Positions 19,007-59,038 are shown, numbered from the stretch's first letter. The stretch is 64,000 nt of DNA from an uncultured Clostridia bacterium (GCA_947625645.1 CANQPE010000002.1:22981-86980); one strand, 5' to 3'. The notes: generated by a model not told the origin, from the letters alone. Translations and numbers: made by a program.

Positions 19007-19071
19007 GGGACAATTAGGGACGTATCTTTTTTGTCCTTCAAGGACAAAAAAGATACGTCCCTAATTGTCCC
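19007..19071. repeat. Palindromic repeat element copy 1, short form
   Basis: gggacaattagggacgtatcttttttgtcc / ttca / ggacaaaaaagatacgtccctaattgtccc; perfect 30-bp arms; between convergent vanZ and engB, overlapping the engB stop. Confidence 0.9.
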
Positions 19072-19651
19072 TAGCTCTATGCTCCAAAAATTCCCATACT
19101 TTTTCTGTGTAAATTTTTCTTTCGGAAGAGAAAGGTAGAATGGGGATATCTTTCATGGGGTTTAACTTGCTTTGGATGTCTGCAACGGCAAGCTCCACTT
19201 TAGTAGGGGCAATTTTGTCAGCTTTATTGGTCAGAATCAGACAAGGCAATCCTGCTTGAATGATGTAGTTGTACATCATTTTATCATTTTCGCTAGGAAT
19301 GTGACGGATATCTACCAAAAATATCACGAAAGAAATTTGTTCACGGTGTTGTAGATAATATTCAATAAAATTTCCTACTTGTGCTTGTTCTTGTTTTGAC
19401 ATTTTACTATACCCATAGCCAGGTAAATCTACAAAATAAAAAAGGTTATCCATATTATAAAAATTGATTTGGCGCGTTTTTCCAGGCTCACTGCTGGTAC
19501 GTGCCAGATTTTTTCTTTGAATCATGGTATTGATAAAACTAGATTTGCCAACATTGGACTTGCCAACTAGTACAATTTCTGGTAAGCCATTTTGAGGGTA
19601 TTGGCTAGGTTGTACGGCAGATATTTCAAATTTTGGATTTTTGATATGCAT
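19061..19651 (-). CDS. engB: Ribosome biogenesis GTPase EngB/YsxC
   Basis: G1 GKSNVGKSS, G3 DLPGYG, NKADK. Confidence 0.9.
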   Translation of the reverse strand: MHIKNPKFEISAVQPSQYPQNGLPEIVLVGKSNVGKSSFINTMIQRKNLARTSSEPGKTRQINFYNMDNLFYFVDLPGYGYSKMSKQEQAQVGNFIEYYLQHREQISFVIFLVDIRHIPSENDKMMYNYIIQAGLPCLILTNKADKIAPTKVELAVADIQSKLNPMKDIPILPFSSERKIYTEKVWEFLEHRARDN

Positions 19652-19685
19652 GGTTTCACATTCCTTTCAAAAAAATTTTGATACA

Positions 19686-19716
19686 ATAAAAATACAGTGC
19701 ACACGCATTGGTGTGC
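19686..19716 (-). terminator. Rho-independent terminator downstream of serS
   Basis: On the minus strand gtgcacaccaatgcgtgtgcac hairpin followed by a T-rich tract. Confidence 0.5.
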
Positions 19717-19725
19717 ACGAACCTG

Positions 19726-21018
19726 TTATTTTTGTTTTGGGCAACAGATTTTTTCTAAACCACCCATATATGGTCTTAATACTTCAGGGACAATCACACT
19801 ACCATCAGGTTGATAATGATTTTCCATGATAGAGATTAGCATACGAGGTGGGGCAACAACCGTATTATTCAATGTATGAGCAAAGTAAGTTCCGTTTTCT
19901 CCTTTAATACGAATTCCTAAGCGGCGTGCTTGGGCATCTGTTAGGTTAGAGCAGCTACCAACTTCAAAATACTTTTTCTGGCGAGGAGACCACGCTTCAA
20001 CGTCACAAGATTTTGCTTTTAAATCAGCTAAATCTCCAGAGCAACATTCTAACGTACGCACAGGAATATTCATACTCCTAAAAAATTCTACGGTATAAGA
20101 CCACATTTTTTCATACCAATCCCAACTATCTTCAGGTTCACAAACGACAATCATTTCTTGCTTTTCAAATTGATGGATGCGGTAAACGCCACGTTCTTCT
20201 AAACCATGAGAGCCTTTTTCTTTTCGGAAACAAGGAGAATAAGAAGTCATAGTGTATGGCATATTTTCCTTTTTTAGAATTTGGCCTTTAAACTTTCCAA
20301 TCATAGAATGTTCACTTGTACCAATTAAGTACAAATCTTCACCTTCTATTTTATACATCATAGCATCCATTTCTTCAAAACTCATAACCCCGGTTACAAC
20401 ATCACTTCTAATCATATAAGGGGGAATGCAGTATGTAAATCCTTTTTGAATCATAAAATCTCTTGCATATGTTAAAACAGCAGAATGCAATCGTGCAACA
20501 TCACCTAATAAATAATAAAAACCTTGTCCAGCAACGCGCCTAGCACTATCTAAATCTAAGCCACCTAAGTTTTCCAAGATATCAGCATGAAAAGGAATAT
20601 CATAAGGAGGAACGATAGGGTCACCAAACTTTTGGATTTCCACATTCTCACTATCATCTTTTCCAATAGGAACGGAGTCATGCATGATGTTTGGAATTTT
20701 CATCATTCTACTTTGAATTTCTTGTGTATAGGTATGTTCCAATGCTTCATTTTCTTCTAACTTTTTATTAATGTCTTGGACTTGAGCCTTAACCACTTCA
20801 GCCTCTTCTTTTTTGCCATTTTTCATCAAACCACCAATTTGATTGCTAAGAGAATTTCGTTCTGCACGCAACTGATCACCTTCTAATTTGGCTTTACGGC
20901 TTTTAGCATCAAGTTCAATCACTTCATCAACGAGAACCAACTTTTGGTCCTGAAATTTCTTTCTAATATTGTCTTTGACAACATCAGGATTTTCCCTTAA
21001 AAATTTAATATCAATCAT
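19726..21018 (-). CDS. serS: Serine--tRNA ligase
   Basis: N-terminal coiled-coil arm; class II motifs; AGGAGGTAA RBS 5 nt upstream. Confidence 0.9.
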   Translation of the reverse strand: MIDIKFLRENPDVVKDNIRKKFQDQKLVLVDEVIELDAKSRKAKLEGDQLRAERNSLSNQIGGLMKNGKKEEAEVVKAQVQDINKKLEENEALEHTYTQEIQSRMMKIPNIMHDSVPIGKDDSENVEIQKFGDPIVPPYDIPFHADILENLGGLDLDSARRVAGQGFYYLLGDVARLHSAVLTYARDFMIQKGFTYCIPPYMIRSDVVTGVMSFEEMDAMMYKIEGEDLYLIGTSEHSMIGKFKGQILKKENMPYTMTSYSPCFRKEKGSHGLEERGVYRIHQFEKQEMIVVCEPEDSWDWYEKMWSYTVEFFRSMNIPVRTLECCSGDLADLKAKSCDVEAWSPRQKKYFEVGSCSNLTDAQARRLGIRIKGENGTYFAHTLNNTVVAPPRMLISIMENHYQPDGSVIVPEVLRPYMGGLEKICCPKQK

Positions 21019-21038
21019 AATTACCTCCTACTGAGCCA

Positions 21039-21102
21039 GGAACAATTAGGGACGTATCTTTTTTGTCCCTGAGGGACAAAAAAGATACGTCCCTAATTGT
21101 CC
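21039..21102. repeat. Palindromic repeat element copy 2, short form
   Basis: Same arms, loop tgag; lies between the DUF1653 gene and the serS RBS. Confidence 0.9.
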
Positions 21103-21109
21103 TTTGGGT

Positions 21110-21367
21110 TTATATATAATTTTTTTCAATTTCGTCTACAAGTACAAAGCGTGTTTTTTGTCCTGTAATATTGTCTGGTCTTTCAGGAATTTCGGATAAA
21201 AACATTTTTTCTGGTCTTACCCATATGGTACGACCGTCGTCTCTATGATATAAAGGTTTGTATATTACCATTCTTTCTTTGGTTTCCGAGTCATATCCTA
21301 CATTTTCTACAAAATAGTAGTTTCCTTTGAAATGGCGATAGACTCTACCAACTTTTACTTCTTCCAT
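21110..21367 (-). CDS. DUF1653-family small protein
   Basis: YRHFKGNYYFV...W(V/I)RP motif typical of DUF1653. Confidence 0.55.
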   Translation of the reverse strand: MEEVKVGRVYRHFKGNYYFVENVGYDSETKERMVIYKPLYHRDDGRTIWVRPEKMFLSEIPERPDNITGQKTRFVLVDEIEKNYI

Positions 21368-21507: not shown

Positions 21508-22347
21508 ATGGTTTACGAATGGATTCAATTTATAGTGTATACAGGTCTGATTGTAGTTATTTCTAAATATGTGTTGGTAGTTATTCTTAGAAAATTGGCA
21601 GAAAATTTGGAATTAAAGGCGACAACTGTGGGGAATATTGCAGGGGCTGCTACTTCAGTACCAGAATTGCTTACAATTACAATATCAAGCATGAAAGGGT
21701 TAATGGGGGCCAGTATTTACAACATATTGAGTTCAAATGTGATTAATTTTTTACAGTATATTGCTTCTATTGTAGTTAATAAAAATAGAAAGGCATTTCA
21801 AAATTTAGCAATTCAAATCGATATTGTACTAGTGGTGGTAACAATTTTGATACCAATTGCTTTATTATGGCTCAATATAGGATTGAATTTGTATATAATA
21901 CCTATTTTTGTTCTGCTGTACGCATTGTTCCAGTATATTAACCATAATGCCCATAAGTTATATTTGCAACAAGAGGAAGAAAAGTTAAAAAAACAAATTG
22001 ATGAAGAGAAAGAAGCAGAAAAAGGAAATACGAGGAAAACAGTGTTATATGTAGTAATTTTGTTGTTGGTAGGGACTGTGCTATTTGTTGTAGGAGATTT
22101 GTTAGGAGAGACAATAGAAAGTTTGGCACAACATTTTGAAATTTCACAGACAGTGATTGGTATTTTATTAGGAATTGCAACAAGCATACCAGAATTGATT
22201 ACTTTTTTTGAATCGCAGAAACACTATACTTCAAAACATCATGAAATTTTAGGTGTTGTAGAAGCGACTAACAATTTATTGACATCAAATTTATTGAATT
22301 TATTTGTCATTCAAACAATTGGCATTTTAATTGTAGCTTTCAGTTAA
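21508..22347 (+). CDS. CaCA-family (sodium/calcium exchanger-like) membrane protein
   Basis: Two alpha-repeat motifs GNIAGAATSVPELLTI and GILLGIATSIPELITF. Confidence 0.6.
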   Translation: MVYEWIQFIVYTGLIVVISKYVLVVILRKLAENLELKATTVGNIAGAATSVPELLTITISSMKGLMGASIYNILSSNVINFLQYIASIVVNKNRKAFQNLAIQIDIVLVVVTILIPIALLWLNIGLNLYIIPIFVLLYALFQYINHNAHKLYLQQEEEKLKKQIDEEKEAEKGNTRKTVLYVVILLLVGTVLFVVGDLLGETIESLAQHFEISQTVIGILLGIATSIPELITFFESQKHYTSKHHEILGVVEATNNLLTSNLLNLFVIQTIGILIVAFS

Positions 22348-22413
22348 AAATGGCTTGACAATTGAAAAGAAACAAGCTATACTTTCGGAAGAGGGTAGGG
22401 AGAGTGGCAAGAT

Positions 22414-23286
22414 ATGAATAAAAAAACGATAGTGATAATAGGTGTATTGACGCTAATGATGATCATGTTAGCAATTGCGGCATATTTCCTTTTCATAGAC
22501 ATTCAATCAAAAGTACCAAAAACAATAGAAGAAAAATATGAAATTCAAATTACAAAATATGATAATAGAAACGTATTTACAATTTGTCCAAAACAGGGGA
22601 AAAATGAACAGTATATATTATATTTTCATGGTGGATCTTATATGGCTGAGATGACAGATGATCATTGGAAATTTTTAGATAGACTCATGCAAGAAACAGG
22701 AAATTCGGTTATTGTGCCAGATTATCCGTTGACACCAAAATATAATTATAAAGATGTATTTGAAATGGTGGTGCCAATGTACCAAGAAATTTTACAAAAG
22801 ATACCACCTGAAAATATCATTATGATGGGAGATTCAGCAGGTGGTGGTCTAGCGTTGGCTTTAGAAGAAAAATTGGGGGAAGAAGGCATAGAGGTACCTA
22901 ACCAATTAATTCTCATATCACCATGGTTAGATGTTACAATGTCAAACCCTGAAATTGAAGAATATCAAAAGAACGATAAAAATTTGAATAAAGAGGCATT
23001 AAAAGTAGCTGGAATGGCATATAGCGGAGCAGACGGAATGGAAAGTTATTTGGTCAATCCCATTAAGGGACCAGTACATAAGCTAAAAAATGTTACTATC
23101 TATACGGGAATGTATGATATTTTAAATCCGGATGCAAGAAAGTTTGCAGAGCGTGCCAAAGAAGAAGGCGTAGAAATTACGATAAAAGAATATGAAGAGG
23201 CAGAGCATATTTGGCTAATATACCAGGAAGGTGAATTAGCAGAACAGGCATTTCGAGACTTAATCGGGCAAATAACGAAGTTTTAG
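22414..23286 (+). CDS. Alpha/beta-hydrolase fold esterase/lipase (HSL-like) with N-terminal membrane anchor
   Basis: HGGSY oxyanion motif, GDSAGG nucleophile elbow, downstream D and H. Confidence 0.75.
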   Translation: MNKKTIVIIGVLTLMMIMLAIAAYFLFIDIQSKVPKTIEEKYEIQITKYDNRNVFTICPKQGKNEQYILYFHGGSYMAEMTDDHWKFLDRLMQETGNSVIVPDYPLTPKYNYKDVFEMVVPMYQEILQKIPPENIIMMGDSAGGGLALALEEKLGEEGIEVPNQLILISPWLDVTMSNPEIEEYQKNDKNLNKEALKVAGMAYSGADGMESYLVNPIKGPVHKLKNVTIYTGMYDILNPDARKFAERAKEEGVEITIKEYEEAEHIWLIYQEGELAEQAFRDLIGQITKF

Positions 23287-23331
23287 AACGACTATGAAGT
23301 AAGAACGAAAAATGATAAAGGATGTGATTCT

Positions 23332-24300
23332 ATGAACGAAAAAAAGAATGAAATTGTTTTATTTGAAAATCAAGGAGTAAAATTAGAAGTAAATCTAAAA
23401 GATGAAACAGTATGGCTTAATTTAGAACAAATGGCTGAATTGTTTGGAAGAGATAAGTCTGTTATATCAAGGCATATAAAAAATGTGTTGAATGAAGAAT
23501 TACAAGACGAACAGGTTGTTGCAAAATTTGCAACAACCACTAAACATGGTGCTATTGAAGGGAAAACGCAAACACATTTGGTAGATTATTATAATCTTGA
23601 TATGATAATTTCTATCGGATATCGTGTAAAATCATCTAATGGTATTATTTTTAGAAAATGGGCAAACAAAATATTAAAAGACTATATGTTAAAAGGATAT
23701 GCTGTAAACCAAAAAAGACTAGAATATTTAGAGAAAACAATAAAAATAATAGACATTGCAAATAGAATAGATGAAAGATTAGAAGGAAATGATGCAAAAG
23801 AAATATTAAAAGTAATTGGAAATTATTCAAAAGCACTTGATTTATTAGATGACTATGATCACAGAACATTAAAGAAGATAGACGGAAATATAGATGAAAG
23901 AAAAATTGAGTATAAAGAATGTTTAGAAGTCATCAATAAATTAAGATTTAATGAAGAAAGTTCTTTATTTGCAGTAGAAAGAGATAAAGGATTGGAATCA
24001 ATTATAGGTAATATCTATCAGAGCTTTGCTGGACAAGACATCTATAAAAGTGTAGAAGAAAAAGGAGCAAATTTCTTGTATTTAATAGTAAAAAATCATG
24101 TATTTGCAGATGGTAATAAGAGAATTGCAGCTACATTATTTATATATTTTTTAAACTTTTATGGAATATTATATAAAAATGGAAAACATATAATTGATAA
24201 TAATACTCTAGCTGCACTTACTTTATTAATAGCAGAATCAAATCCAAAGGAAAAAGATGTAATCATAGACCTAGTAATGAATTTTTTGAATAACGAATAA
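23332..24300 (+). CDS. RhuM-family protein carrying a C-terminal Fic/Doc motif
   Basis: N-terminus LEQMAELFGRDKSVISRHIKNV...YNLDMIISIGYRV (RhuM-like); C-terminal HVFADGNKR matching HxFx(D/E)GN(G/K)R. Confidence 0.6.
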   Translation: MNEKKNEIVLFENQGVKLEVNLKDETVWLNLEQMAELFGRDKSVISRHIKNVLNEELQDEQVVAKFATTTKHGAIEGKTQTHLVDYYNLDMIISIGYRVKSSNGIIFRKWANKILKDYMLKGYAVNQKRLEYLEKTIKIIDIANRIDERLEGNDAKEILKVIGNYSKALDLLDDYDHRTLKKIDGNIDERKIEYKECLEVINKLRFNEESSLFAVERDKGLESIIGNIYQSFAGQDIYKSVEEKGANFLYLIVKNHVFADGNKRIAATLFIYFLNFYGILYKNGKHIIDNNTLAALTLLIAESNPKEKDVIIDLVMNFLNNE

Positions 24301-24351
24301 AAAATTAATTTCTAACATTATTGTTACATAATAAAAATTAGGAAAAACTAC

Positions 24352-24379: not shown

Positions 24380-24380
24380 A

Positions 24381-27140: not shown

Positions 27141-27205
27141 GGAACAAATAGGGACGTATCTTTTTTGTCCGTTAGGGACAAAAAAGATACGTCCCTATTT
27201 GTTCC
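27141..27205. repeat. Palindromic repeat element copy 3, short form with CAAATAGG variant arms, inside the spoVA operon
   Basis: ggaacaaatagggacgtatcttttttgtcc / gtta / gggacaaaaaagatacgtccctatttgttcc; lies between the spoVAC stop and spoVAD start. Confidence 0.9.
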
Positions 27206-27922: not shown

Positions 27923-28036
27923 AACTTATATCCATCCTTTCTAAGGCAAAAGTGTTTACCTTTACAAAATTTTCTGATAATATTTTTTACCGATTTTTGA
28001 AAAATTATACAAAATTGAATAACAAAATCATTTTTT

Positions 28037-28116
28037 GGACAATTAGGGACGGGACAATTAGGGACGTATCTTTTTTGTCCATCAGGGACAAAAAAGATAC
28101 GTCCCTAATTGTCCCC
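28037..28116. repeat. Palindromic repeat element copy 4, short form with a 14-bp partial left-arm duplication
   Basis: ggacaattagggac + gggacaattagggacgtatcttttttgtcc / atca / gggacaaaaaagatacgtccctaattgtcccc. Confidence 0.9.
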
Positions 28117-28120
28117 AAAA

Positions 28121-28248
28121 AAAAAATAAAAATTTGCACGAAAAAGAAGATTTGAATCGTTTTATCAATGAAAGAGGAAAAAAGACAGCTAAAAGGGGAG
28201 GCATAGAAGAGAAAGTGGAAAACAAAAAAATAAAGGGAGGGATTTTTC
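28121..28248 (+). pseudogene. Remnant of the ECF sigma-factor 5' region (promoter/UTR and first 7 codons), fused to the paralog-1 start
   Basis: About 90% identical to 30494..30612, including a GTGGAAAACAAAAAAATAAAG start remnant that runs into a stop. Confidence 0.6.
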
Positions 28249-30348
28249 ATGAAAATTAGAAGAAAAATTATTGCGATTGCATCCACACTAGCCATTTTAT
28301 TAGGAACAGGAACAGTATATGCAGCACTGGGAGGAACGATTAATGGAGTGCCAGTGCTAGAATGGATGGGAATCAAAGTTTCAAACCAAGAGGTGGAATA
28401 CATACAACCAGTTCAAAATAAAGTTGTAGAAAATGACATAGCAAGAGTGGCATTAGAATCAGCAGTATGTGACGATGGGTATACCATATTGCAATTTAGA
28501 GTAAACTTAAAAGATAAAATTATGCAACAATATCGAGAAGAGACGGAAGAAGGAACGAATGTACCATTTATCAATTTATTATTCAACGATTCCGCCAAAG
28601 ACTTGGTGGAAAAGGGGGAGTATAGTCTAAGCAATTACCATCTTATTGTTAACCAAGATGGTGTAAATATTAGAAATGGAGCAACCGATCAAACCCTTAA
28701 AAGAATATCTGAAAGTGAATATTTAGTAGATCAAGTATGGTTTTTAGATGACACCATTTTAGGAGACCAAGAAACATTTGAAATTACATTAAGAGACATT
28801 GCTATTAGAATGGAAAATGAAGGTTTTATGATAGATGGAAGCATTCAAACTACATTATCTAAAACAGAGGCAATGGAACAGTCAACAGTTATTATACCTG
28901 AAGAAGAAATGACGCTGACACGAGGAAAAATGAAGCATACCCTTGAAAAAGTAACAATAACACCATTACAGAACATTATAGAATTTCAAACGGTATACGA
29001 AGATGTCAATAGAGACGACTTTCAAAATACAATCCATCCATTAAAATATGAGGCATATGACGAAAATGGGGAATACCTATCAACAATGGATATCATTACA
29101 AAAGCAAACATTACTTACGAAGACGGTTCAGAAGAGGAATATGAATTGCAAGACGATTTTTCAGATGATACGTTTGCTAAAGAAACATTTGAACATGCAA
29201 AGTATGAAATTACTAGAAAAATTGCAATTGACCAAACCAATAAAAATGAAACAATCATATTAAAAGCATTCGAAACGATGTTAGAAGAGGGAAGAGAAAA
29301 AAGAGAAGGCATACAACAATATGAAGTGAATTTTGCGAAACAAACCATAAAAAGTCAAGATGAAGTAGAAGAAAATGAGCAAACAGAAAGTGATGTAACA
29401 AAAACAGAAGAGCCAATAGAAAGTGGTGTAGCGACAATAGAAGAGCAAATAAAAACAGAAAAAACGGGAAACATATTGAAAGCAGAAGTAACCCAAATGA
29501 CAATAGGAATAGAAGGTAAAGGCGTAATAGACGTCAAAGACAAAGAAATAATAGAGCAACTTGTAACAACAGTGAATGAAAAAACGCAAGAGTTCAAAAA
29601 TTTTACTGAAATATTTGGAGAAGACGATGGCGGGGCGGCACCTGCATGTCTACAAATTCATTTAGCTAATGGAAAATTTTATTTTATCGGAGTTTGTGAC
29701 AAGTATGTAAAAGATGCTACAGGCCAATATTATAATGTTATGTTCGTTAGTGAATATAATGAAGCAAACCATGAAAATATCATTAGTGATAAAATCTATA
29801 TTGTAGAAACAGAGTTACAAAAACAATTAGACGAATTATATGAACAAGAACGCCAAGCAAGTCAAACCCAGGCACCACAAGTAGAAGAATCTTATGAAGA
29901 GAAACCTAACCTAGAAGAAGCAAGTACAGAGAAAACAGAAATACTTAGCAATGTGGATTACATAAAAGTTAGTATCTTTGAACTAGAAGAAGAAATGGTT
30001 AAAGAAAAGGCTGTTACAATAAGAGACGCAAAAGAAATCAAGCAATTGGTGCAAACCATTAATGAACATGCAAGCCAATATGAAACATTTTTAGAAGACA
30101 TGGGAGCAGGAGACTATTTTGAAGGAACTCCAGCCATAACAGCATATTTAAAGAATGGAAATGAGGTTACTATCATGGCAAAGGATGACTTTGATAAAGA
30201 TAAAAATGGAAAATTTTACAATGTGTTTGCTTATTATGAATATGAAATGGGGGAGGAAATCCGCGCCGTAAAGGATGCATACTATAAGATAGATGTAGAT
30301 TTGCAACATCAAATAGAAGCATTATATCAAAAATATGAGAGAAAATAA
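28249..30348 (+). CDS. Membrane-anchored large extracytoplasmic protein, paralog 1 of the anti-sigma-like protein, lacking the cytoplasmic N-terminal segment
   Basis: Signal-anchor MKIRRKIIAIASTLAILLGTGTVYA; ~90% nucleotide identity to 31190.. over the first several hundred bp; C-terminal tandem ~125-aa domain pair. Confidence 0.7.
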   Translation: MKIRRKIIAIASTLAILLGTGTVYAALGGTINGVPVLEWMGIKVSNQEVEYIQPVQNKVVENDIARVALESAVCDDGYTILQFRVNLKDKIMQQYREETEEGTNVPFINLLFNDSAKDLVEKGEYSLSNYHLIVNQDGVNIRNGATDQTLKRISESEYLVDQVWFLDDTILGDQETFEITLRDIAIRMENEGFMIDGSIQTTLSKTEAMEQSTVIIPEEEMTLTRGKMKHTLEKVTITPLQNIIEFQTVYEDVNRDDFQNTIHPLKYEAYDENGEYLSTMDIITKANITYEDGSEEEYELQDDFSDDTFAKETFEHAKYEITRKIAIDQTNKNETIILKAFETMLEEGREKREGIQQYEVNFAKQTIKSQDEVEENEQTESDVTKTEEPIESGVATIEEQIKTEKTGNILKAEVTQMTIGIEGKGVIDVKDKEIIEQLVTTVNEKTQEFKNFTEIFGEDDGGAAPACLQIHLANGKFYFIGVCDKYVKDATGQYYNVMFVSEYNEANHENIISDKIYIVETELQKQLDELYEQERQASQTQAPQVEESYEEKPNLEEASTEKTEILSNVDYIKVSIFELEEEMVKEKAVTIRDAKEIKQLVQTINEHASQYETFLEDMGAGDYFEGTPAITAYLKNGNEVTIMAKDDFDKDKNGKFYNVFAYYEYEMGEEIRAVKDAYYKIDVDLQHQIEALYQKYERK

Positions 30349-30360
30349 AAAAGTTCTCTC

Positions 30361-30425
30361 GGGACAGTTAGGGACGTATCTTTTTTGTCCATTAGGGACA
30401 AAAAAGATACGTCCCTAATTGTCCC
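30361..30425. repeat. Palindromic repeat element copy 5, short form
   Basis: gggacaGttaggg left arm pairs with a T on the right arm (G·U in RNA); otherwise perfect. Confidence 0.9.
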
Positions 30426-30590
30426 AAACAGACACTAATTTGTTCGAGAGTTCTTGTAAAAAATGTTTACAAAAAAATGCGGAAATGATAAAATAAAAAA
30501 AATAAAAATTTGCACGAAACAGAAAGTTTGAATCGTTTTATAAATGAAAGAGGAAAAAAGGCAATTAAAAGGGGAGGAATAGAAAGGAAA

Positions 30591-31076
30591 ATGGAAAACC
30601 AAAAAATAAAAGAATTAGTAGAAACATATTCAGATATGATTATGAAAATTGCCTATCAAAACAGCTTTAATAAATCAGATAGTGAAGACATTGTTCAAGA
30701 AGTTTTTTTGAAGTTGATGAAAAACATAAACAAATTAGGAGAGGACAACAATTATATAAAGGCATGGCTAATTAGAGTGACAATAAATTTAAGCAAAGAC
30801 TATAACAAAAGCGCTTGGTATAAAAAGGTAAGAGCTATTGAAGAAGATAATCAAGAATATGAGTTTAACTCAGAAGAACAAGATGTTTTAAAGGAACTGG
30901 CAAAATTAAAACCAGTGTACCGAAATACCATTTATTTATACTATTATGAAGGGTACAGGATACATGAAATTGCCAAAATCTTAAATCAAAATGAAAATAC
31001 AGTAAGTTCCAACTTGACAAGAGCAAGAAAACAATTAAAAGGCATCTTAGAAGAAGGAGGTGAGCTGTATGCCTAA
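30591..31076 (+). CDS. ECF-type sigma-70 family RNA polymerase sigma factor
   Basis: Region 2 (DIVQEVFLKL...AWL) and region 4 HTH (IHEIAKILNQNENTVSSNLTRARKQL); stop overlaps the downstream start (ATGCCTAA). Confidence 0.8.
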   Translation: MENQKIKELVETYSDMIMKIAYQNSFNKSDSEDIVQEVFLKLMKNINKLGEDNNYIKAWLIRVTINLSKDYNKSAWYKKVRAIEEDNQEYEFNSEEQDVLKELAKLKPVYRNTIYLYYYEGYRIHEIAKILNQNENTVSSNLTRARKQLKGILEEGGELYA

Positions 31077-33249: not shown

Positions 33250-33260
33250 AAAATTCTCTC

Positions 33261-33325
33261 GGGACAATTAGGGACGTATCTTTTTTGTCCGTTAGGGACA
33301 AAAAAGATACGTCCCTAATTGTCCC
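33261..33325. repeat. Palindromic repeat element copy 6, short form
   Basis: Perfect arms, loop gtta; lies between the paralog-2 stop and rsmB start. Confidence 0.9.
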
Positions 33326-33353
33326 TCGGCCAGAAAAAAAGGAGGAAGAAAAA

Positions 33354-37882: not shown

Positions 37883-38026
37883 TTTCGTTATTATTATTAT
37901 ACTTGATTACAAGTATGGAAATGATAAACATTCAAAAGAAAAGGGGGATAGACAAAAGAAATATCGTTTGATAACGACCAATGTGAGAAAAACACAGGAA
38001 GAAATTAAAATTTAGGAGGTAAAAAA

Positions 38027-38632
38027 ATGAAAAAGAATCAAAAAGGTATTACACTAGTAGCCTTAGTAATTACAATCATTGTATTATTAATTCTTGCAGG
38101 TGTAACAATTGCATCACTAGCAGGTGAAAACGGATTATTAACAAGGAGTTCAAAGGCAGTTAATGCTAATACAACAGGAACGAAAAAAGAACAAGTAGTA
38201 TTATCCTACGACACAGCATCAGGAGCATATTATGATGCAAAATACGTAGACAATTCTGTAACCAATATTGCTCCAAATGGAACAATTACAAAAATAGAAC
38301 CTACGGCATATATTGTTAAGCAATTATTAAAAGATGCCGATTTTACAGAGGTAGCAGGTATCTATGACAGTGACGAGACAAATGCTAAAGAGTATGTTAT
38401 TAAAGATGCTTCTGGAAAAGTTAATGGAAAAGACTTTGACGGCACCTCACAAGAGGAAGTTCCAGACAATTTAACATCAGCTTGGATTCGTTTAAAAGGT
38501 TCTGTAAGACGCGATGCAAATGAAAACGAATATACTGGTAAAAATGGATTAATTCAAGTTCAAATTAAAAATCAAGGGAATGCTTCTATGCTAGCTAAAC
38601 CTTGGTCAGATGAAAAACCATTACCAGAATAA
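38027..38632 (+). CDS. Type IV (pseudo)pilin-like protein, copy 1
   Basis: Class III signal MKKNQKG|ITLVALVITIIVLLILAGV (positive leader, G at -1, hydrophobic helix) but Ala rather than Glu at +5; RBS TTAGGAGGTAAAAAAATG. Confidence 0.55.
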   Translation: MKKNQKGITLVALVITIIVLLILAGVTIASLAGENGLLTRSSKAVNANTTGTKKEQVVLSYDTASGAYYDAKYVDNSVTNIAPNGTITKIEPTAYIVKQLLKDADFTEVAGIYDSDETNAKEYVIKDASGKVNGKDFDGTSQEEVPDNLTSAWIRLKGSVRRDANENEYTGKNGLIQVQIKNQGNASMLAKPWSDEKPLPE

Positions 38633-38673
38633 GATGCACTAGCAGATAAAAACAAATATTAGGAGGTAAAAAA

Positions 38674-45359: not shown

Positions 45360-45457
45360 GGGACAATTAGGGACGTTTCTTTTTTGTCCCTCAGGAACAA
45401 TTGGGGACAGACCTTTGGAGCATGGGGGACAAAAAAGAAACGTCCCTAATTGTCCCC
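45360..45457. repeat. Palindromic repeat element copy 7, long form (cgtttc arm variant, 35-nt internal insert)
   Basis: gggacaattagggacgtttcttttttgtccc ... gggacaaaaaagaaacgtccctaattgtccc; the insert contains a half-site-like ggaacaattgggga. Confidence 0.85.
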
Positions 45458-45475: not shown

Positions 45476-46399
45476 ATGAAGGAAGAGAAAAAGGCTACGC
45501 GCCAAAGCTATGGAGAGGCGTTAGTAGATTTGGGAAAACAAAATCCGAATATTGTTGTATTAGATGCAGATTTAGCAAGTGCCACAAAAACAGAATTGTT
45601 TGCCAAGGCATATCCTGACCGTTTTTTTGATATGGGAATTGCGGAAGCAGATATGATGTCAACCGCTGCAGGAATGGCCACTTGTGGCAAAATTCCATAT
45701 GCAAGTACATTTGCTATGTTTGCCGCAGGAAGGGCATATGACCAAATACGAAATAGTATTTGTTACCCAGAATTACCAGTTAAAATTTGTGCAACCCATG
45801 CAGGAATTACCGTAGGGGAAGATGGAGCAACCCATCAAATGATAGAAGACCTATCTTTAATGCGTACATTACCCAATATGACAGTTTTGTCAGTAAGTGA
45901 TGATGTACAAACAAAGTGGGCTGTAAAGGAAATAGCAAATTTACAAGGTCCAGTATATTTACGTTTATCTCGATTAGCAACCAATGTGCTATATGAAGAA
46001 AATCAAGTATTTGAAATTGGAAAAGCTGTGCAATGGGGCAATGGAACAGACGGTACCATTTTTAGTACAGGTGTGACAGTGGCCGAAAGTCTAAAGGCAC
46101 AAGAGCAGTTAGAACAAAAAGGAATCCATGTCAGAGTGGTAGATATGCATACCATAAAGCCAATTGATAAAGATATGATTATTAAGGCGGCAAAAGAAAC
46201 AAAACGCCTTGTTTCTGTAGAAGACCATAATGTGATAGGAGGTTTAGGTAGTGCAATAGCAGAAGTTTTAACAGAATATGAACCCAAACATTTTATTCGA
46301 TTGGGTATTCCAGATACCTTTGGAAAATCTGGAAAAGCAGTGGAATTGATGAAATTTTTTGGCATCACAGCAGATAATATTATGAAGCAGTGGAGCTAG
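45476..46399 (+). CDS. Transketolase C-terminal subunit (pyrimidine-binding and C-terminal domains), orphan
   Basis: IAEADMMSTAAGMATCGKIPYASTFAMFAAGRAYDQIRNSI; no N-terminal TPP-binding subunit gene adjacent; the ORF-track start at 45401 runs through the repeat. Confidence 0.8.
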   Translation: MKEEKKATRQSYGEALVDLGKQNPNIVVLDADLASATKTELFAKAYPDRFFDMGIAEADMMSTAAGMATCGKIPYASTFAMFAAGRAYDQIRNSICYPELPVKICATHAGITVGEDGATHQMIEDLSLMRTLPNMTVLSVSDDVQTKWAVKEIANLQGPVYLRLSRLATNVLYEENQVFEIGKAVQWGNGTDGTIFSTGVTVAESLKAQEQLEQKGIHVRVVDMHTIKPIDKDMIIKAAKETKRLVSVEDHNVIGGLGSAIAEVLTEYEPKHFIRLGIPDTFGKSGKAVELMKFFGITADNIMKQWS

Positions 46400-46462
46400 G
46401 GACAATTAGGGACGTATCTTTTTTGTCCCAATTGGACAAAAAAGATACGTCCCTAATTGTTC
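46399..46462. repeat. Palindromic repeat element copy 8, short form
   Basis: Arms as in the family, loop aatt; starts at the last base of the tkt stop codon. Confidence 0.9.
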
Positions 46463-46488
46463 CAAAATAGAAAGGATGGGAATGAAAA

Positions 46489-46722
46489 ATGGAAAATAAA
46501 CAAGAAAAAATGGGAGAAAAAGTGGTAAACACAGTGCAAAAGGCAAGTGTGATTATCTCTGGAAAAATTGAAGAAATGAAAGGAACTAATCCAGAAAAAG
46601 CAACATATTATACACAAAATCTACAACAAATACATGAAAAAGTCAATAATGAATTACTTGGTTCAGAAGTGATTGAAATATTAGATACAATTATCAATAT
46701 GCAAAGTGATTTATTATTATAA
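46489..46722 (+). CDS. Hypothetical 77-aa protein
   Basis: ORF only; no recognisable motif. Confidence 0.25.
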   Translation: MENKQEKMGEKVVNTVQKASVIISGKIEEMKGTNPEKATYYTQNLQQIHEKVNNELLGSEVIEILDTIINMQSDLLL

Positions 46723-47593: not shown

Positions 47594-48503
47594 CATATTA
47601 GGATATTTAATAGGTGAAGGGTTCAGCAATGTCTTTAAAAATAAAAAATCAACAGGTGCCTCATTAGTCATTATGTGTGCAACAATGATTATTTTTGGTG
47701 TTTTTCTTATTTTAGGAGAGAACATCAACCATTTTGTTGATGATATCAAATCAGAACAAGGCTTTCAGGTGTTTATTAAAGTAGATGCCACGCAAGAAGA
47801 AATTGAAAAGTTTGGAGAAGATATTAGGAGCATACCAGGTGTTAGCACAGCAGAATTTATTTCAAAAGAAGATGGTCTCAACAGAATGAAGGAACGATTA
47901 AAAGATGATAAAGGTGTATTAGATGGTTTTAATGTAGAGGCGTTTCGTGCATCTTATATGGTAAAAATCACAGACCTAGAACAAAGTCAACAAATACAAG
48001 AGCAAATTAAGAAAATTGAAAACTATGTTAGAATTACAAGTAGTGATGAAACCATAACGGCGTTGGTTCGTTTGGCAAATGGTATACGCATTTTTACAGG
48101 TGCTATTTTATTGTTATTAATCATAATTTCTATTTTCATCATTTCAAATACCATTAAGTTAACAGTACACGCAAGAAGAAAAGAAATATCGATTATGAAA
48201 TATGTAGGAGCAACCAATAACTTTATTCGTTGGCCTTTTATTGTAGAAGGTATGATTATTGGAGTTATTTCTAGTGCCATTTCCATTGCGATTGTAGGCG
48301 GGGCATATAACTTTATTGCAACAGAGCTAGTGAATGCATCTTTCATGAAAATGATAGGGATGAGTTTAGTTGGCTTTAGTGAAATGCTATCTTCTATTAT
48401 AGTGGTGTATATGCTATTAGGAATTGGAATTGGTGCCATCCGGAAGTGTTATTTCTATGAGGAAATATTTAAAAGTATAAAGGAGTTTGGTAGCTATGCG
48501 TAA
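47583..48503 (+). CDS. ftsX: Cell-division permease FtsX
   Basis: Four TM helices with a large extracellular loop; start overlaps the ftsE end. Confidence 0.8.
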   Translation: MKYNILGYLIGEGFSNVFKNKKSTGASLVIMCATMIIFGVFLILGENINHFVDDIKSEQGFQVFIKVDATQEEIEKFGEDIRSIPGVSTAEFISKEDGLNRMKERLKDDKGVLDGFNVEAFRASYMVKITDLEQSQQIQEQIKKIENYVRITSSDETITALVRLANGIRIFTGAILLLLIIISIFIISNTIKLTVHARRKEISIMKYVGATNNFIRWPFIVEGMIIGVISSAISIAIVGGAYNFIATELVNASFMKMIGMSLVGFSEMLSSIIVVYMLLGIGIGAIRKCYFYEEIFKSIKEFGSYA

Positions 48504-49779
48504 GATTTTATGTATGGTACTCATTTGCTTGTTATGTTTTGGCATGTCATTTGTAGAGGCAGTCGATAGTGAAAATGCAGTAGGAAATACAACGGCAAAT
48601 GCAACCGATTTGCAAAAGACGCAACAAGAAATGCAAGAACAAATTCAGCAGGCAAACGAAGAGCTTTCCGTCATACAGTTAGATATTACGGAAAACATTG
48701 AGCAAGTGCAAAAATTAGATGAAAAAATAGAAGCAGCAGAAGCTGAACTAGCAACAACATCAGAACAAGCGCAAGTTTTGCAACAGACAATCCAGGGATT
48801 GGAAGAAACACAAAAAACAGAACAAGAAAAATATGATAAACAAAAAGAATTATTTGAAGAACGTGTTGTCGCATTATATGAAGCTGGAGATACACAATAT
48901 TTAGATGTATTACTACACTCTGAAAATGTAACAGATTTTATTTCTAGTTACTTTATTATATCAGAAATTGCAGATTATGATGCAGATATTTTAAATACAA
49001 TTGGCGAAAGAAAACATAATATTGAAATTACAAAAACAAAGCTAGAAAAACAAAAAGAACAATTGGCAATCATTGTAGAAAAACGAACCAGAACAGCAAA
49101 GGTCTTACAAACCACAAAATTACTAAGGGAAAATTATATTTCAAAATTATCTGAACAAGAAAAACAAACACAGGAGAAAATTGAAGCCTATCATCAGGCA
49201 TTAAAAGAAGTGAATCAGCAAATGATTGAACTGGCTAAACAAGGGCTTGAGACAGCATATATAGGCGGCGAGCTAGCATGGCCAGTGCCAGGCTATACGC
49301 AAATTAGTTCCAAATATGGGATGAGAGTTCATCCTATCACAAAAGTGTATAAATTACATACCGGTGTAGATATTTCTGCACCAATGGGAGCAAATTTTGT
49401 TGCTGCCAATGACGGAATCGTAATAAAAGCGGGGTACAACAGTGCTTATGGTAACATGGTTGTAATTGACCATGGAGGTGGAATTTCCACATTATATGCA
49501 CATGGTTCTCAAATTTTAGTGCAAGTGGGAGAGCAAGTGACAAGAAACCAAGCCATTTTAAAAGTAGGGTCAACAGGCTATTCAACAGGACCACATGCAC
49601 ATTTTGAGGTAAGAAAGCAAGGTGTTGTTACAAACCCAATGCCATATATTACGAGTGGACTTGTACCAAATTCTGAAGAAGATAAAGCTGAAAAGGAAAA
49701 TCAAACCAAAGAAAATGCAGTACAAAATAATACTGTGGAAGAAAATATGGTGGTACAAAATACAAATCAAAATGGGTAA
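48496..49779 (+). CDS. Coiled-coil M23 peptidase (EnvC/PcsB-like, FtsEX-associated)
   Basis: Signal peptide, long coiled coil, C-terminal M23 domain HTGVDISAP...DHGGGISTLYAHGS...GPHAHFE. Confidence 0.8.
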   Translation: MRKILCMVLICLLCFGMSFVEAVDSENAVGNTTANATDLQKTQQEMQEQIQQANEELSVIQLDITENIEQVQKLDEKIEAAEAELATTSEQAQVLQQTIQGLEETQKTEQEKYDKQKELFEERVVALYEAGDTQYLDVLLHSENVTDFISSYFIISEIADYDADILNTIGERKHNIEITKTKLEKQKEQLAIIVEKRTRTAKVLQTTKLLRENYISKLSEQEKQTQEKIEAYHQALKEVNQQMIELAKQGLETAYIGGELAWPVPGYTQISSKYGMRVHPITKVYKLHTGVDISAPMGANFVAANDGIVIKAGYNSAYGNMVVIDHGGGISTLYAHGSQILVQVGEQVTRNQAILKVGSTGYSTGPHAHFEVRKQGVVTNPMPYITSGLVPNSEEDKAEKENQTKENAVQNNTVEENMVVQNTNQNG

Positions 49780-49829
49780 AATTTGTGCTACATAGGGATG
49801 ATATTACACTAGAAAGGAAAGGTAAGCCA

Positions 49830-51098
49830 ATGAGAATCTTAGGAAAAAAAATACTAGGGATGCTTTTAATTATGATGATAATAAGTTGGACGAATGTTGT
49901 GTTGGCATTGGATGAAACAGCTTTAAACAATCAAAAAGAGAACAATAATCAAAAAATACAGGAAACAGAAGCAGAAAAAGAAAAGGTGCAAGAGTTAAAA
50001 AGTGAGACGGTAAAGCAAGTAGAAGAATTAGACAGCCAAATTGATGAATATCAAAGTCAAATTAGTAGTTTGGATGGTCAAATTGCAGAAGCAAATACGA
50101 AAATTCAAGAAACAACAGCGAAATTAGAACAAGCACAAAAAGATTATGAAAATCAACAAAAAATGTTGGAAGAGAGAGTGGTTGCTTTATATGAAGCAGG
50201 AGAAACTACGTATTTAGATGTGTTGTTGTCTTCAGAGAGTGTGACAGATTTTATTTCTAGTTATTATGTCATTTCTGAAATTGCACAATGTGATGTTGAT
50301 TTATTGAATGAAATTGACTTCAAGAAAAAGGAAATAGAGACAACGAAACAAGAGTTAGAAGCAAGTAAAAATCAGTTAACATCAGCCAGAACAAATAAAA
50401 AATTAGTTGCTTCTCAATTAGAAGCCACCAAAACAGAAAAGCAAAATAAAGTGGCACAGTTATCTGAACAAGAGCAACAATTGCAAGCTCAAATTGATGA
50501 AATCAAAAAAGATAATGTTTCAATTGACCAACAAATTCAATCATATAAAGCAGAGTTAAAGCGTAAAATGGAAGAAGAGTTACGAAGAAGAAAACAACAA
50601 GAGGAAGAAGAAGCCAGAAGAAGGAAAAGTGAAGCTAACGCGGGAGGGGGCACTACTTCAAGCGGTTCTTCAGGGACAACCACCGGAACCAGTTCAAGTG
50701 GATTTATCCATCCCGTGCCATCTGCATATGCTACAGTCACGACGAAATGGTATTATTCAAATGGAAGTGTTCATGGCGCAGTAGATTATGGCTCTGGCGG
50801 AATTGCTGGTCAACCAGTTTATGCGGTGGCAGATGGCATTGTGGCGCAAACCGCTGCACTTACAACAAGTTATGGTAATTATATAATTATTATGCATTAT
50901 AATGGTTTATATACATTATATGCACATGGGCAACAGGGGTCGATTACGGTTTCAAAGGGGCAACCGGTCAAACAAGGGCAACAAATTATGAAAGTAGGAA
51001 GTTCAGGGAATTCTACAGGACCACATTTACACTTTGAAGTCAGAACAGATCCAGGGTTGTACAGCAACCGAAAAAATCCATTAAATTATTTGCCATAG
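49830..51098 (+). CDS. Coiled-coil M23 peptidase, tandem paralog with G/S/T-rich linker
   Basis: Same architecture; M23 motifs HGAVDY...GPHLHFE. Confidence 0.8.
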   Translation: MRILGKKILGMLLIMMIISWTNVVLALDETALNNQKENNNQKIQETEAEKEKVQELKSETVKQVEELDSQIDEYQSQISSLDGQIAEANTKIQETTAKLEQAQKDYENQQKMLEERVVALYEAGETTYLDVLLSSESVTDFISSYYVISEIAQCDVDLLNEIDFKKKEIETTKQELEASKNQLTSARTNKKLVASQLEATKTEKQNKVAQLSEQEQQLQAQIDEIKKDNVSIDQQIQSYKAELKRKMEEELRRRKQQEEEEARRRKSEANAGGGTTSSGSSGTTTGTSSSGFIHPVPSAYATVTTKWYYSNGSVHGAVDYGSGGIAGQPVYAVADGIVAQTAALTTSYGNYIIIMHYNGLYTLYAHGQQGSITVSKGQPVKQGQQIMKVGSSGNSTGPHLHFEVRTDPGLYSNRKNPLNYLP

Positions 51099-53581: not shown

Positions 53582-53678
53582 GGGACAATCAGGGACGGTT
53601 CTTTTTTGTCCCTCAAGAGCAATTGGAGCTAGACCTTTGAGGCTTGAGGGACAAAAAAGAACCGTCCCTGATTGTCCC
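53582..53678. repeat. Palindromic repeat element copy 9, long form (caatcaggg/cggttc variant with compensated arms)
   Basis: 36-bp perfect arms gggacaatcagggacggttcttttttgtccctcaag / cttgagggacaaaaaagaaccgtccctgattgtccc; between convergent greA and deoD. Confidence 0.85.
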
Positions 53679-55283: not shown

Positions 55284-55355
55284 CTAGCAACAACATTATC
55301 TTCTACGTCAAGCCGATTGTTTTTGACGAAGAAAAAAATAAGGGAGAGATTAAAA

Positions 55356-57371: not shown

Positions 57372-57385
57372 TGAAAGGAAGTTGA

Positions 57386-58276
57386 ATGAAGCAAATAGAG
57401 GGATATATTATAAAACATATTGCCAATCAATATGTGGTTCAAACCAAGCAAGGTTTATACCAAGCAACGGCGAGGGGGAGATTGAAAAAGGAAGAAATCT
57501 CCCCTGTTGTAGGAGATAAAGTACGTATTTTAGTGGAAGAAGAAGAAACGAAACAAGCTGTCATTGAAGAAATTTTTCCCAGAACGGTTTTGATGAGACG
57601 TCCTAAAATAGCTAACATTACGCAGATGGTGTTTGTTATATCAAGTCAACATCCAAAGCCAGATTTGCTATTGCTAGATAAGCAGTTAGCATTGGCAGAG
57701 TTGAAACATATAAACAGTCTTATTGTACTCAATAAAATGGATTTAGATAAAAAACAGCAATTTCAGTCTATCAAAGAGATGTATCAAAAGATAGGGTATG
57801 AAATCATAGAAACACAGGCAAATGAATCTGTTGGAGTGCCAGAGCTAAAAAAGAAATTAAAAGGAAATGTCAATGTATTTTCTGGAAATTCTGGGGTAGG
57901 AAAATCAACGTTACTGAATCATATTTTTGCTAAGAATCTAACAGAAGAAGGAGAAATTAGCCAAAAAAATCAAAGAGGAAAGAATACGACCACAGCAATT
58001 CAATTGTATGAAATGGATGAAGATACATTCATTGCCGATACACCGGGTTTTTCAACTTTTGATGTTTCAGAGATTCTGGCAAATGAGCTGGATCAATGTT
58101 TTAAAGAATTTCAAAAGTATATCCCGAAGTGTCAGTTTGTAGGCTGTACCCATATTAAAGAAGAAACTTGTGGGGTAAAAAAGGCTATGCAAGAGGGAAA
58201 AATTACACAAGGGCGATATATCAATTTTTGTAAAATATATGAAGAATTAAAAGAAAAGGAGAAACGCAAATGGTAG
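57386..58276 (+). CDS. rsgA: Ribosome small-subunit-dependent GTPase A
   Basis: Circularly permuted GTPase (NKMD...GNSGVGKST), C-terminal Cys zinc knuckle. Confidence 0.85.
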   Translation: MKQIEGYIIKHIANQYVVQTKQGLYQATARGRLKKEEISPVVGDKVRILVEEEETKQAVIEEIFPRTVLMRRPKIANITQMVFVISSQHPKPDLLLLDKQLALAELKHINSLIVLNKMDLDKKQQFQSIKEMYQKIGYEIIETQANESVGVPELKKKLKGNVNVFSGNSGVGKSTLLNHIFAKNLTEEGEISQKNQRGKNTTTAIQLYEMDEDTFIADTPGFSTFDVSEILANELDQCFKEFQKYIPKCQFVGCTHIKEETCGVKKAMQEGKITQGRYINFCKIYEELKEKEKRKW

Positions 58277-58932
58277 AGGTATCGGCTTCTATATTGAATG
58301 TTTTACCGGGGAAAGAGACAGAAACTTTTTTAGCATTAGAAAAAGGGAAGACAGACTATTTTCATATTGATGTCATGGATGGGGTTTTTGTGGAAAAGAA
58401 CACATACGATAAAATGTTAGAAGCAGCATCCTATATAAAGAGAATATCCAATTTGCCATTAGATGTGCATTTAATGGTTAAAAATGTACCAGAAGCAGTT
58501 GATGATTTTGGAGCTTTAGCACCAAACCTGATTACGTTTCATTATGAAGCCTGCAGTTCTCCAGAAGAAGTCATGAAAGTGATACAGCAAATTAAGGGAT
58601 GGCATGCAAAAGTGGGAATCAGTGTCAAACCAGACACAGATGTTACTAAAATTTACCCATTTTTACCTTATGTTCATACTGTGCTAATTATGACGGTTGA
58701 ACCTGGAAAAGGTGGACAAACCTTTTTAAGTGACATGACACAAAAAATTCAAAAATGTCATAGCTATATACAAGAAAACGACTTAGAAATTGACATAGAA
58801 GTAGATGGAGGAATTAATCTCAAAACGGCAGATACAGTCAAAGCAGCAGGAGCTAATATATTAGTAGCAGGAACGGCAATCCTGAAAGCAGTTGACTTTG
58901 GAGAGATTATAAAAGAATTAAAAAAATCTTGA
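58270..58932 (+). CDS. rpe: Ribulose-phosphate 3-epimerase
   Basis: SILNVLPGK...HIDVMDGVFV...VDGGIN. Confidence 0.85.
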   Translation: MVEVSASILNVLPGKETETFLALEKGKTDYFHIDVMDGVFVEKNTYDKMLEAASYIKRISNLPLDVHLMVKNVPEAVDDFGALAPNLITFHYEACSSPEEVMKVIQQIKGWHAKVGISVKPDTDVTKIYPFLPYVHTVLIMTVEPGKGGQTFLSDMTQKIQKCHSYIQENDLEIDIEVDGGINLKTADTVKAAGANILVAGTAILKAVDFGEIIKELKKS

Positions 58933-58940
58933 CGTGACGG

Positions 58941-59038
58941 GGGACAATTAGGGACGGTTCTTTTTTGTCCCTCAGGAGCAATAGGGGTCAGATCTATGTA
59001 ATATTGAGGGACAAAAAAGAACCGTCCCTAATTGTCCC
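58941..59038. repeat. Palindromic repeat element copy 10, long form; it supplies the last ~14 codons and the stop of the tsaC-like gene
   Basis: gggacaattagggacggttcttttttgtccctca ... tgagggacaaaaaagaaccgtccctaattgtccc; the minus-strand reading GTIRDGSFLSLNIT* is the tsaC C-terminus. Confidence 0.85.

Follow-up and report, generated by a model that had tools for sequence, protein, structure and literature searches.

A dispersed family of palindromic, REP- and MITE-like intergenic repeats in uncultured gut Clostridia

A 64-kb stretch of DNA from an uncultured Clostridia bacterium (CANQPE010000002.1:22981-86980; hereafter the window) carries ten copies of a short palindromic element between its genes. 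The element represents a real, dispersed and previously undescribed family of palindromic repeats resembling the repetitive extragenic palindromes (REPs) and miniature inverted-repeat transposable elements (MITEs) of other bacteria. The best explanation, to which a probability of about one half is assigned, is that the copies are short interspersed intergenic repeats of low-GC (guanine plus cytosine), spore-forming, uncultured gut Clostridia, comparable to REPs, bacterial interspersed mosaic elements (BIMEs) and REPINs. The family is unusual in its perfect palindromy with compensation, its modular flipped pentamers and a core common to several lineages.

Both strands of the window were searched with the 30-nt arm of the palindrome, allowing up to three mismatches. 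The 20 matches form ten plus/minus pairs, and 100 dinucleotide shuffles of the window gave none. The ten copies are 93–100% identical and fall into two size classes, seven of 65 bp and three of 97–98 bp (Table 1). Since the window (32% GC) is 90.6% coding, the intergenic position of all ten midpoints has a probability of about 6e-11; the elements take up 747 of the ~6,000 intergenic bases, the non-coding share being ~9%. Six copies overlap no gene, two overlap one by 1 nt, one by 11 nt and one by 45 nt, the last supplying the final 15 codons of a Sua5/YrdC-like open reading frame (ORF). An arm-profile search of the 64 kb found no full arm beyond the 20, and none in the first 19 kb or the pilus locus (34.8–45.3 kb). 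An earlier note on this DNA, made from the sequence alone, had described ten palindromic copies, all intergenic or over last codons only and absent from those two regions, and each of these points was borne out (overlaps of 0–45 nt); the gene contexts that it listed, including the serS leader, were confirmed by Pfam.

The anatomy of the element required more revision. The true repeat unit is a 31-nt arm, GGGAC-N5-GGGACG(T/G)(A/T)TC-T6-GTCC(C), rather than the palindrome that had been taken as the unit, because relatives carry the arm solo, in tandem or flipped. Its invariant core, GGGGACG(T/G)(T/A)TC-T6, stands between two GGAC/GTCC pentamers, usually mutually complementary, and the outermost bases are its most variable part. 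In the window the arms always lie head-to-head, as a 65-bp inverted doublet or as a doublet with a partial third arm (97 bp). The spacer of the palindrome, formerly given as a 4-nt loop, is 5 nt and shrinks to 1–3 nt where the stem runs longer, with stems reaching 32–36 nt in some copies. Exact reverse complementarity over 30 nt, previously ascribed to every copy, holds for six of the ten, and the other four have one or two mismatches. The long class reported at ~100 bp exists, but its size is 97–98 nt and it contains a central, partial third arm-like segment (GGAACAATTGGGGACAGACC). There is also an element at the reported start of 28037, but copy 4 itself starts at 28051, and 28037 marks a partial extra arm, the only partial head that the profile search detected (nhmmer E = 0.003), which is also part of an inverted repeat.

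A second arm type, TGTCCAATTGGGGACGTTTCTTTTTTGGACA, has the same core with outer and inner pentamers reverse-complemented relative to GGGAC...GTCCC and is referred to here as flipped-pentamer. In most arms the two pentamers are complementary to each other; hybrids also occur, and around the constant core the outer and inner pentamers appear in each of the four possible pairs of orientations. Further, the GGAC/GTCC pentamers are often iterated at a phase of ~10 bp and in variable number (L021, L031, L047 and L070; L-numbers denote the about 95 loci of related genomes and assemblies compared with the window). Based on these swaps and hybrids, the family is a mosaic of pentamers around a constant asymmetric core. 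An origin of the doublets by fold-back duplication at the intra-arm GGGAC/GTCCC hairpin was considered and rejected because the centre of the palindrome lies outside that loop.

Several observations argue against neutral decay of the copies. In an alignment of 14 doublets, the ten of the window and four of other lineages, 99.3% of cells are paired and nine of the 30 pairs have changed on both sides, giving 37 compensated cells, a level reached in none of 500 shuffles. Copies 3, 7, 9 and 10 each have one to three variant positions, always on both arms; copy 3 has the same two variant bases on each arm (GGAACAAATAGGG), and copy 9 has three such positions. One-sided changes include two in copy 2, at arm positions 1 and 3, and a single one in copy 5, which gives a G.U pair on the sense strand. 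The 2.2-kb segment 28219-30425, which has copy 5 at its 3' end, is duplicated as 31157-33325, and although the duplicated DNA is only 79% identical, copies 5 and 6 agree at 64 of 65 positions (P = 4e-6). At sites shared between genomes, each copy fits the consensus of its own genome (GTATC/AGGG here, GTTTC/GGGG in the metagenome-assembled genome (MAG) CANSPP01), and the pilC/transketolase site has different arm types in two species. L018 and L026 have an overall identity of 89%; the two arms that surround one gene are 100% conserved between them (P about 7e-4), and the intergenic DNA beside these arms has substitutions and indels. The identity of the duplicated elements and the genome-specific consensus imply homogenisation or replacement, be it by gene conversion, re-insertion or co-evolution with a recognition protein, and the compensation between arms together with conservation in place implies constraint on both structure and sequence.

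The family extends well beyond the window. When 185,579 species genomes were scanned for the 20-nt core, 34 loci emerged; ten of them belong to a single MAG, 'uncultured Clostridium sp.' CANSPP01, and sit on contigs that are not linked. The copies counted are thus ten in the 64 kb of the window and at least ten exact-core arms in that MAG. Together with arms in other Clostridia, these loci support the earlier view of a dispersed family rather than a local duplication. The CANSPP01 arm (GGGACAWTTGGGGACGTTTCTTTTTTGTCCC) is nearly always solo, as against doublets only in the window genome, and elsewhere the profile matched arms that stand alone, in tandem, as doublets or far apart in inverted orientation. 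The low-GC Clostridia L002 and L021 have doublets whose palindromic spacers are longer; tandem arms are present in L011, L015 and L022, and arm pairs 1 kb apart around one gene in L018, L025 and L026; the pair of L018 encloses the gene of a Bax-inhibitor-like membrane protein and no transposase. The core and the same architecture also occur in contigs of 52–69% GC (L031, L047, L049 and L070), where the flanking genes are again housekeeping genes. This breadth is partly a matter of ascertainment because the search pattern fixed the core. In the core scans, which took in metagenomes as well as genomes, only matches with phased GGAC repeats upstream were counted as relatives, and many others were set aside as chance, being 3' halves of terminators (GGGACGGYTCTTTTTT) or coding sequence in unrelated phyla. 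A shared PNP_UDP_1 neighbour of L047 and the window was likewise dismissed, the two proteins being unrelated.

Comparison of orthologous sites places the family in an evolutionary context. The CANSPP01 locus L005 is syntenic with the window over 19.1–27.9 kb and at rsmB, with 72–77% DNA identity in long aligned blocks. Its spoVAC/spoVAD spacer has a solo arm (L005 1087-1117) at the site of doublet 3, and its serS leader a degenerate solo arm of the flipped type at the site of doublet 2. A degenerate solo arm, again of the flipped type, is found at the same place of the serS leader in L074-76, an abundant species, and no arm there in L071 or L079. L089, which by pilC (85%) is the closest relative, has a perfect doublet of the flipped type in its pilC/transketolase spacer, at the site of the long-form copy 7. 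Relatives with an occupied site (L005, L074 and L089) cover copies 2, 3 and 7, and relatives with an empty one (L073, L071 and L089) cover copies 1, 2 and 8, though boundaries of empty sites cannot be read precisely at 72–77% identity to the syntenic relative. No arm was found in the syntenic regions of L071/72, L073, L079, L082-88 (a species of 1.9 Mb and 27% GC) and L090-94, the sites of copies 1, 2 and 8 included; in L071-73, L079 and L082-88 these armless stretches measure 12–21 kb, and in L090-94 greA is followed by rpsO without an arm. SerS of the armless L071/72 and L073 is 89–90% identical. Collectively, the occupied and armless sites show that the family is old at some sites and patchy in the genus, and that its form depends on the genome. 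Such a patchy distribution is typical of proliferating repeats. As a side observation on these relatives, many genes, recD2, RNase J, serS and whiA among them, are split into 2–4 ORFs in L083 (ERZ1761048 contig_1423, 1.89 Mb) and intact in its sisters, which looks like frameshift errors of long-read assembly, not biology.

Table 1. Copies of the element in the window and features adjoining them (RBS, ribosome-binding site; ECF, extracytoplasmic function; coordinates are those of the window unless a locus is named)
Feature	Position	Form	Context
Copy 1	19007..19071	65-bp perfect palindrome, 32-nt arms, 1-nt centre	between convergent VanZ (+) and EngB (-)
Copy 2	21039..21103	65 bp	between DUF1653 and serS (both -), 7 nt upstream of serS RBS
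Copy 3	27141..27205	65 bp	in spoVAC-spoVAD spacer (- strand operon)
Partial arm head	28037..28050 (+)	GGACAATTAGGGAC, 14-15 nt	directly abuts front of copy 4
Copy 4	28051..28115	65 bp	divergent spacer of dodecin (-) and DUF4179 anti-sigma gene (+)
Copy 5	30361..30425	65 bp	after first DUF4179 gene, before ECF sigma gene
Copy 6	33261..33325	65 bp	after second DUF4179 gene, 27 nt before rsmB start
Copy 7	45360..45456	97-nt long form	between pilC (T2SSF) and transketolase C-half gene
Transketolase C-half gene	45478-46399; L089 11421-12371; L090 11544-12467		
Copy 8	46399..46463	65 bp	begins at final base of transketolase stop codon
Copy 9	53582..53678	97-nt long form	fills gap between convergent greA (+) and PNP_UDP_1 (-)
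Copy 10	58941..59038	98-nt long form	between convergent rpe (+) and Sua5/YrdC-like ORF (-)

All ten copies have ordinary core genes as neighbours by Pfam, which was used to assign gene contexts and covered every window ORF called as a gene except a DUF951-like ORF near 5.1 kb. The last three codons and the stop codon of engB lie inside copy 1. Copies 1 and 9 have both immediate flanks in common (GGAAAA(A)T ... TAGCT; 19000-19006/19072-19078 and 53574-53581/53679-53685), GCTAG adjoins the outer end of copies 1, 8 and 9 (46395-46399 for copy 8), and the TAG stop codon of the gene beside copy 8, like that beside copy 9, includes the last base of the element.

No counterpart of the family was found among described ones. 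Rfam returned no match at gathering thresholds for the whole window, and with a relaxed E-value threshold only generic sub-threshold hairpin models of microRNA precursors, which are spurious. BLAST against phages and plasmids and a viral contig scan gave nothing meaningful. Searching full texts for the arm sequence brought up a single, irrelevant match, and no paper describing the arm family was found in the literature on MITEs or on REPINs and REP-associated tyrosine transposases (RAYTs) in Clostridia. The earlier judgements that the family is not recognisable as a described one and that it is REP/BOX/RUP-like are therefore both upheld, the latter in size, intergenic restriction and hairpin potential. 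Integron attC sites were discarded because R''/R' core sites (RYYYAAC...GTTRRRY) and intI are lacking and the neighbours are syntenic housekeeping genes. Misfits of spacing or sequence removed sigma-54 and ECF promoter motifs, CRISPR repeats and dif/Xer sites, as well as the motifs of IHF, SpoIIID, CggR, Spo0A, SinR and CsrA; all these comparisons were informal.

The closest likeness is to the REPs and BIMEs of E. coli and the REPINs of Pseudomonas. Here as there, a unit of ~30 nt occurs as singlets and as inverted doublets forming long hairpins, in solo, tandem and inverted mosaics that are extragenic, including inside operons and between convergent genes. Copies are near-identical within a genome, the consensus differs between relatives and some sites persist across species. 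However, a GTAG tetranucleotide heads each REP and its unit is an imperfect palindrome, whereas the arms described here start with GGGAC or TGTCC, have no 5' GTAG head and contain only a 5-bp stem around a 21-nt conserved loop. The perfect palindromy of the doublets, the spread of the core over genomes of widely differing GC content, the Firmicute rather than proteobacterial host and the failure to find a RAYT are further differences. MITEs, such as Correia/NEMIS of Neisseria, RUP and BOX of Streptococcus and bcr1 of the Bacillus cereus group, share the length of 65–100 bp, non-coding and intergenic nature, inverted termini, stable RNA hairpin, short and long size classes, presence or absence between relatives and the occasional donation of stop codons to neighbouring ORFs. 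Unlike MITEs, the whole element is one palindrome without terminal inverted repeats around a unique core, conservation is lowest at its terminal bases, half-elements in the form of solo arms occur commonly and are themselves conserved, and there is neither a target-site duplication or preferred target nor a cognate insertion sequence (IS) that could be found.

If the copies are REP-like repeats, they would have been spread and homogenised by a putative trans-acting enzyme, or by gene conversion between copies. A transcribed doublet would fold into a perfect RNA hairpin of 30–36 bp; the predicted energies are -53 kcal/mol for the 65-mers and -63 to -71 kcal/mol for the 97-mers, with z from -12 to -16 on either strand (copy 1, -53 kcal/mol and z = -16), and a solo arm folds no better than shuffles (z = -1.3 and -2.7). 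Between convergent genes, the hairpin could act as a barrier to 3' exonucleases or as a leaky bidirectional terminator, like the REPs of E. coli. Inside operons and in 5' leaders it may serve as a read-through stabiliser or, as an ideal substrate of RNase III, as a processing site. The most economical inference is a REP-like role as a leaky barrier or 3' stabiliser, and possibly as an RNase III site. In line with it, transcription has to pass copy 6 to reach rsmB, and the convergent pairs at copies 1, 9 and 10 lack any further candidate terminator. The few internal one-sided substitutions are transitions and place a G.U pair on the sense strand in all four co-directional contexts (P about 0.06), which is suggestive only.

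A number of points weigh against REP-like repeats as the explanation. Pfam and tblastn revealed no transposase, RAYT or IS with matching ends in the window or the ~95 related loci, and the RAYT/IS200-like mobiliser suggested earlier to lie elsewhere in the genome found no support in them. No Y1_Tnp domain was present in the window ORFs examined by Pfam, and an IS200 TnpA query had no tblastn match in the window or the fetched loci. The flanks of all ten copies lack a direct repeat (2–10 bp) or a common target, and the variability of the outermost arm bases is unlike that of transposon ends. In-situ conservation of solo arms, which are immobile, points to host-level constraint and not to purely selfish spread. 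The recurrence of the core in genomes of 27% to 69% GC is unusual because classical REP families are species-specific. At the RNA level, the U-run (T6) lies inside the stem with no good U-tract after it, a terminator scan is passed by variant tails only, copy 4 stands between divergent genes, and every role of the doublets is one that we infer.

These difficulties give weight to other explanations. The arms could instead be DNA sites for a host protein, either a nucleoid-associated or architectural factor or a global regulator, with doublets being two sites back to back. Such a protein would recognise the GGAC(A) pentamers phased at ~10 bp and the asymmetric core, and the arms would be kept by selection for binding without being mobile. 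This is possible although unlikely. It would account for the 10-bp phase and variable number of the pentamers, their four orientation combinations around a constant core, the complete conservation of solo arms between species while flanks diverge, the persistence of the core at very different GC contents and the placement of arms next to ribosome-binding sites or promoters in either orientation. However, it leaves unexplained why a variant base in one arm of a copy is matched in the other arm and why close relatives have the same genes but no sites. Further, the flanking genes have no common function, and no candidate protein emerged, since sites of SpoIIID, CggR, Spo0A or SinR bear some likeness but differ in spacing. 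By comparison, an artefact of local duplication or assembly confined to this region can be dismissed. Although copies 5 and 6 do share one segmental duplication, the flanks of eight of the ten copies are unrelated, arms are found at unlinked loci in other genomes, and copies 7 and 9 are identical in the independent metagenome assemblies L035 and L081, respectively. Contigs of the same species numbered two, both short.

More doubtful is the proposal that the doublet centre, with its inverted half-sites of 11–13 bp, 5-nt spacer and outer accessory pentamers, serves a site-specific recombinase or forms a recombination hotspot, which would be why elements are met at the edges of variable segments. 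The arrangement of half-site, spacer and half-site does resemble the core site of a tyrosine recombinase, and a parallel with invertons and pdif modules is seen in the related arms that enclose a segment occurring in either orientation and in the elements at the ends of a sigma/anti-sigma module. The segment in question, 62 bp of AT-rich DNA between DUF951 and gltX, is bounded by inverted repeats of ~48 nt that begin with an arm (TGTCCARTTGGGGACGTTTCTTTTTGAGACATTTTTATGTAAAGTT) and lies in opposite orientations, with identical flanks, in L074 and L076 (13765-13915 and 9172-9322) as against L075 (9592-9742), which come from different samples of the same species. It is a candidate inverton, but its neighbourhood yielded no invertase, RecA could have mediated the inversion and the case rests on three assemblies. 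Relative to L005 and L090-93, a 5.4-kb block (27926-33352) is inserted in the divergent spacer of dodecin and rsmB; it contains a DUF4179 anti-sigma gene followed by an ECF sigma gene and a second DUF4179 anti-sigma gene and runs from copy 4 to copy 6, with copy 5 separating the modules and all three spacers in the same orientation. Copy 1 borders the 13.5-kb polysaccharide locus (5576-19084), which is replaced by 124 bp in L005. Copy 8 forms the left edge of an insertion of ~0.4 kb, missing in L089, that runs from the transketolase gene to the conserved ftsE promoter and holds a 77-aa ORF (46489-46722) without a Pfam match. The exchange of one arm type for the other in the doublet of a shared site also fits. 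Against this, most copies lie between conserved, syntenic housekeeping genes, the window copies showed no change of orientation, the long-form centres pointing the same way in independent assemblies, and one of the three or four indels has no element at its borders (22.3–24.3 kb; 22332-24333; an Abhydrolase_3 gene and a RhuM/Fic-domain gene, missing in L005). No recombinase is linked to the arms. The sole one in the window is a fragment of a phage-type tyrosine integrase gene (1-1095) that the window start truncates; it adjoins RNase J and was rejected as a partner because a 63%-identical homologue lies in the same neighbourhood of the armless L073 (7772-8941). The transketolase gene is flanked by copies 7 and 8, as had been noted, but it is no mobile cassette, since it sits between pilC and ftsE in L089-L094 whether or not elements are present. 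A very unlikely explanation is that the copies are ordinary bidirectional intrinsic terminators, alike by duplication or convergence. Symmetric hairpins at convergent genes with A-rich 5' and T-rich 3' flanks that extend the stem do recall such terminators, and the convergent gaps filled by copies 1, 9 and 10 contain no other terminator candidate. In relatives, ordinary terminators occupy these gaps, as at the empty copy 1 site of L073 and L005. Many cross-phylum core matches are 3' halves of terminators (...CCGTCCC-loop-GGGACGGTTCTTTTTT), and on either strand of L031 TTTTTGTC comes directly after the hairpin. However, T6 lies within the stem, the tails (TAATTGTCCC) are poor U-tracts, and the terminator scan passes only the inner 20-bp stem with a TAATTGTTCC or TATTTGTTCC tail, and this in only three copies. 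Copies 3, 4 and 6 are not at convergent 3' ends; copy 3 stands inside the spoVA operon, and the insertion has displaced the rsmB promoter of relatives, so that transcription must read through copy 6. The terminator role proposed earlier thus agrees with the three convergent gaps, but a plain terminator is unlikely for at least copies 4 and 6, the former being divergent and the latter in need of read-through. Moreover, solo arms cannot form the hairpin, yet they are conserved, and the identity among the ten copies is far above what independent terminators need.

Some further features of the region deserve mention. The transketolase gene consists of the C-terminal half only (pyrimidine-binding and C-terminal domains), with no N-terminal partner nearby, and conservation of its position between pilC and ftsE in several related species indicates a stable feature of the genus, not a stray cassette. 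The polysaccharide locus looks like a variable island and encodes an AAA_14/DUF4143 ATPase, LytR-CpsA-Psr, a sugar transferase, three GT2 glycosyltransferases, a flippase, an epimerase, UDP-glucose dehydrogenase and VanZ. Between its LytR-CpsA-Psr and sugar-transferase genes lies an unrelated imperfect palindrome of 69 bp (8355-8423; 32-nt arms, 91% complementary, 5-nt loop; AAAAAGCCAAAAGAACGTAAACAAAGCTATTT), which is probably a terminator or attenuator of the locus. Two pairs of tandem paralogues were also seen: genes of ~200-aa proteins of the pilus locus without a Pfam match (38008-38613 and 38654-39230, 79% identical DNA) and genes of PcsB-like coiled-coil/M23 peptidases downstream of ftsEX (48487-49779 and 49785-51098).

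A bolder proposal, speculative and improbable at present, is that the arm is the recognition module of a putative recombinase or structure-specific DNA- or RNA-binding enzyme common to many Clostridia, with arm pairs as its substrates. If so, the elements would drive small inversions, as in L074/L075, and the Campbell-type capture of modules, as with copies 4, 5 and 6, and would constitute a new site-based system of genome plasticity, not passive REP-like DNA.

As REP-like repeats, the elements have wider significance. Repeats of this kind are well studied in Proteobacteria, and the literature searched described no REP-like family of this kind for Clostridia. The lineage is known only from metagenome assemblies, where the repeats are markers for strain typing. 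At the same time they endanger correct assembly and gene calling, since ORFs next to them acquire stop codons and false start codons from the repeats. With perfect palindromes, double-sided compensation and solo and doublet states at the same orthologous sites, the family is a clean case for study, to which the flipped-pentamer arm type and the occurrence of a 20-nt core in very different genomes add value. It could reveal how repeats are copied and homogenised without a recognisable RAYT, and it could show whether such repeats affect operon expression, as terminators, stabilisers or RNase III sites, and whether they seed inversions and module insertions in gut commensals.

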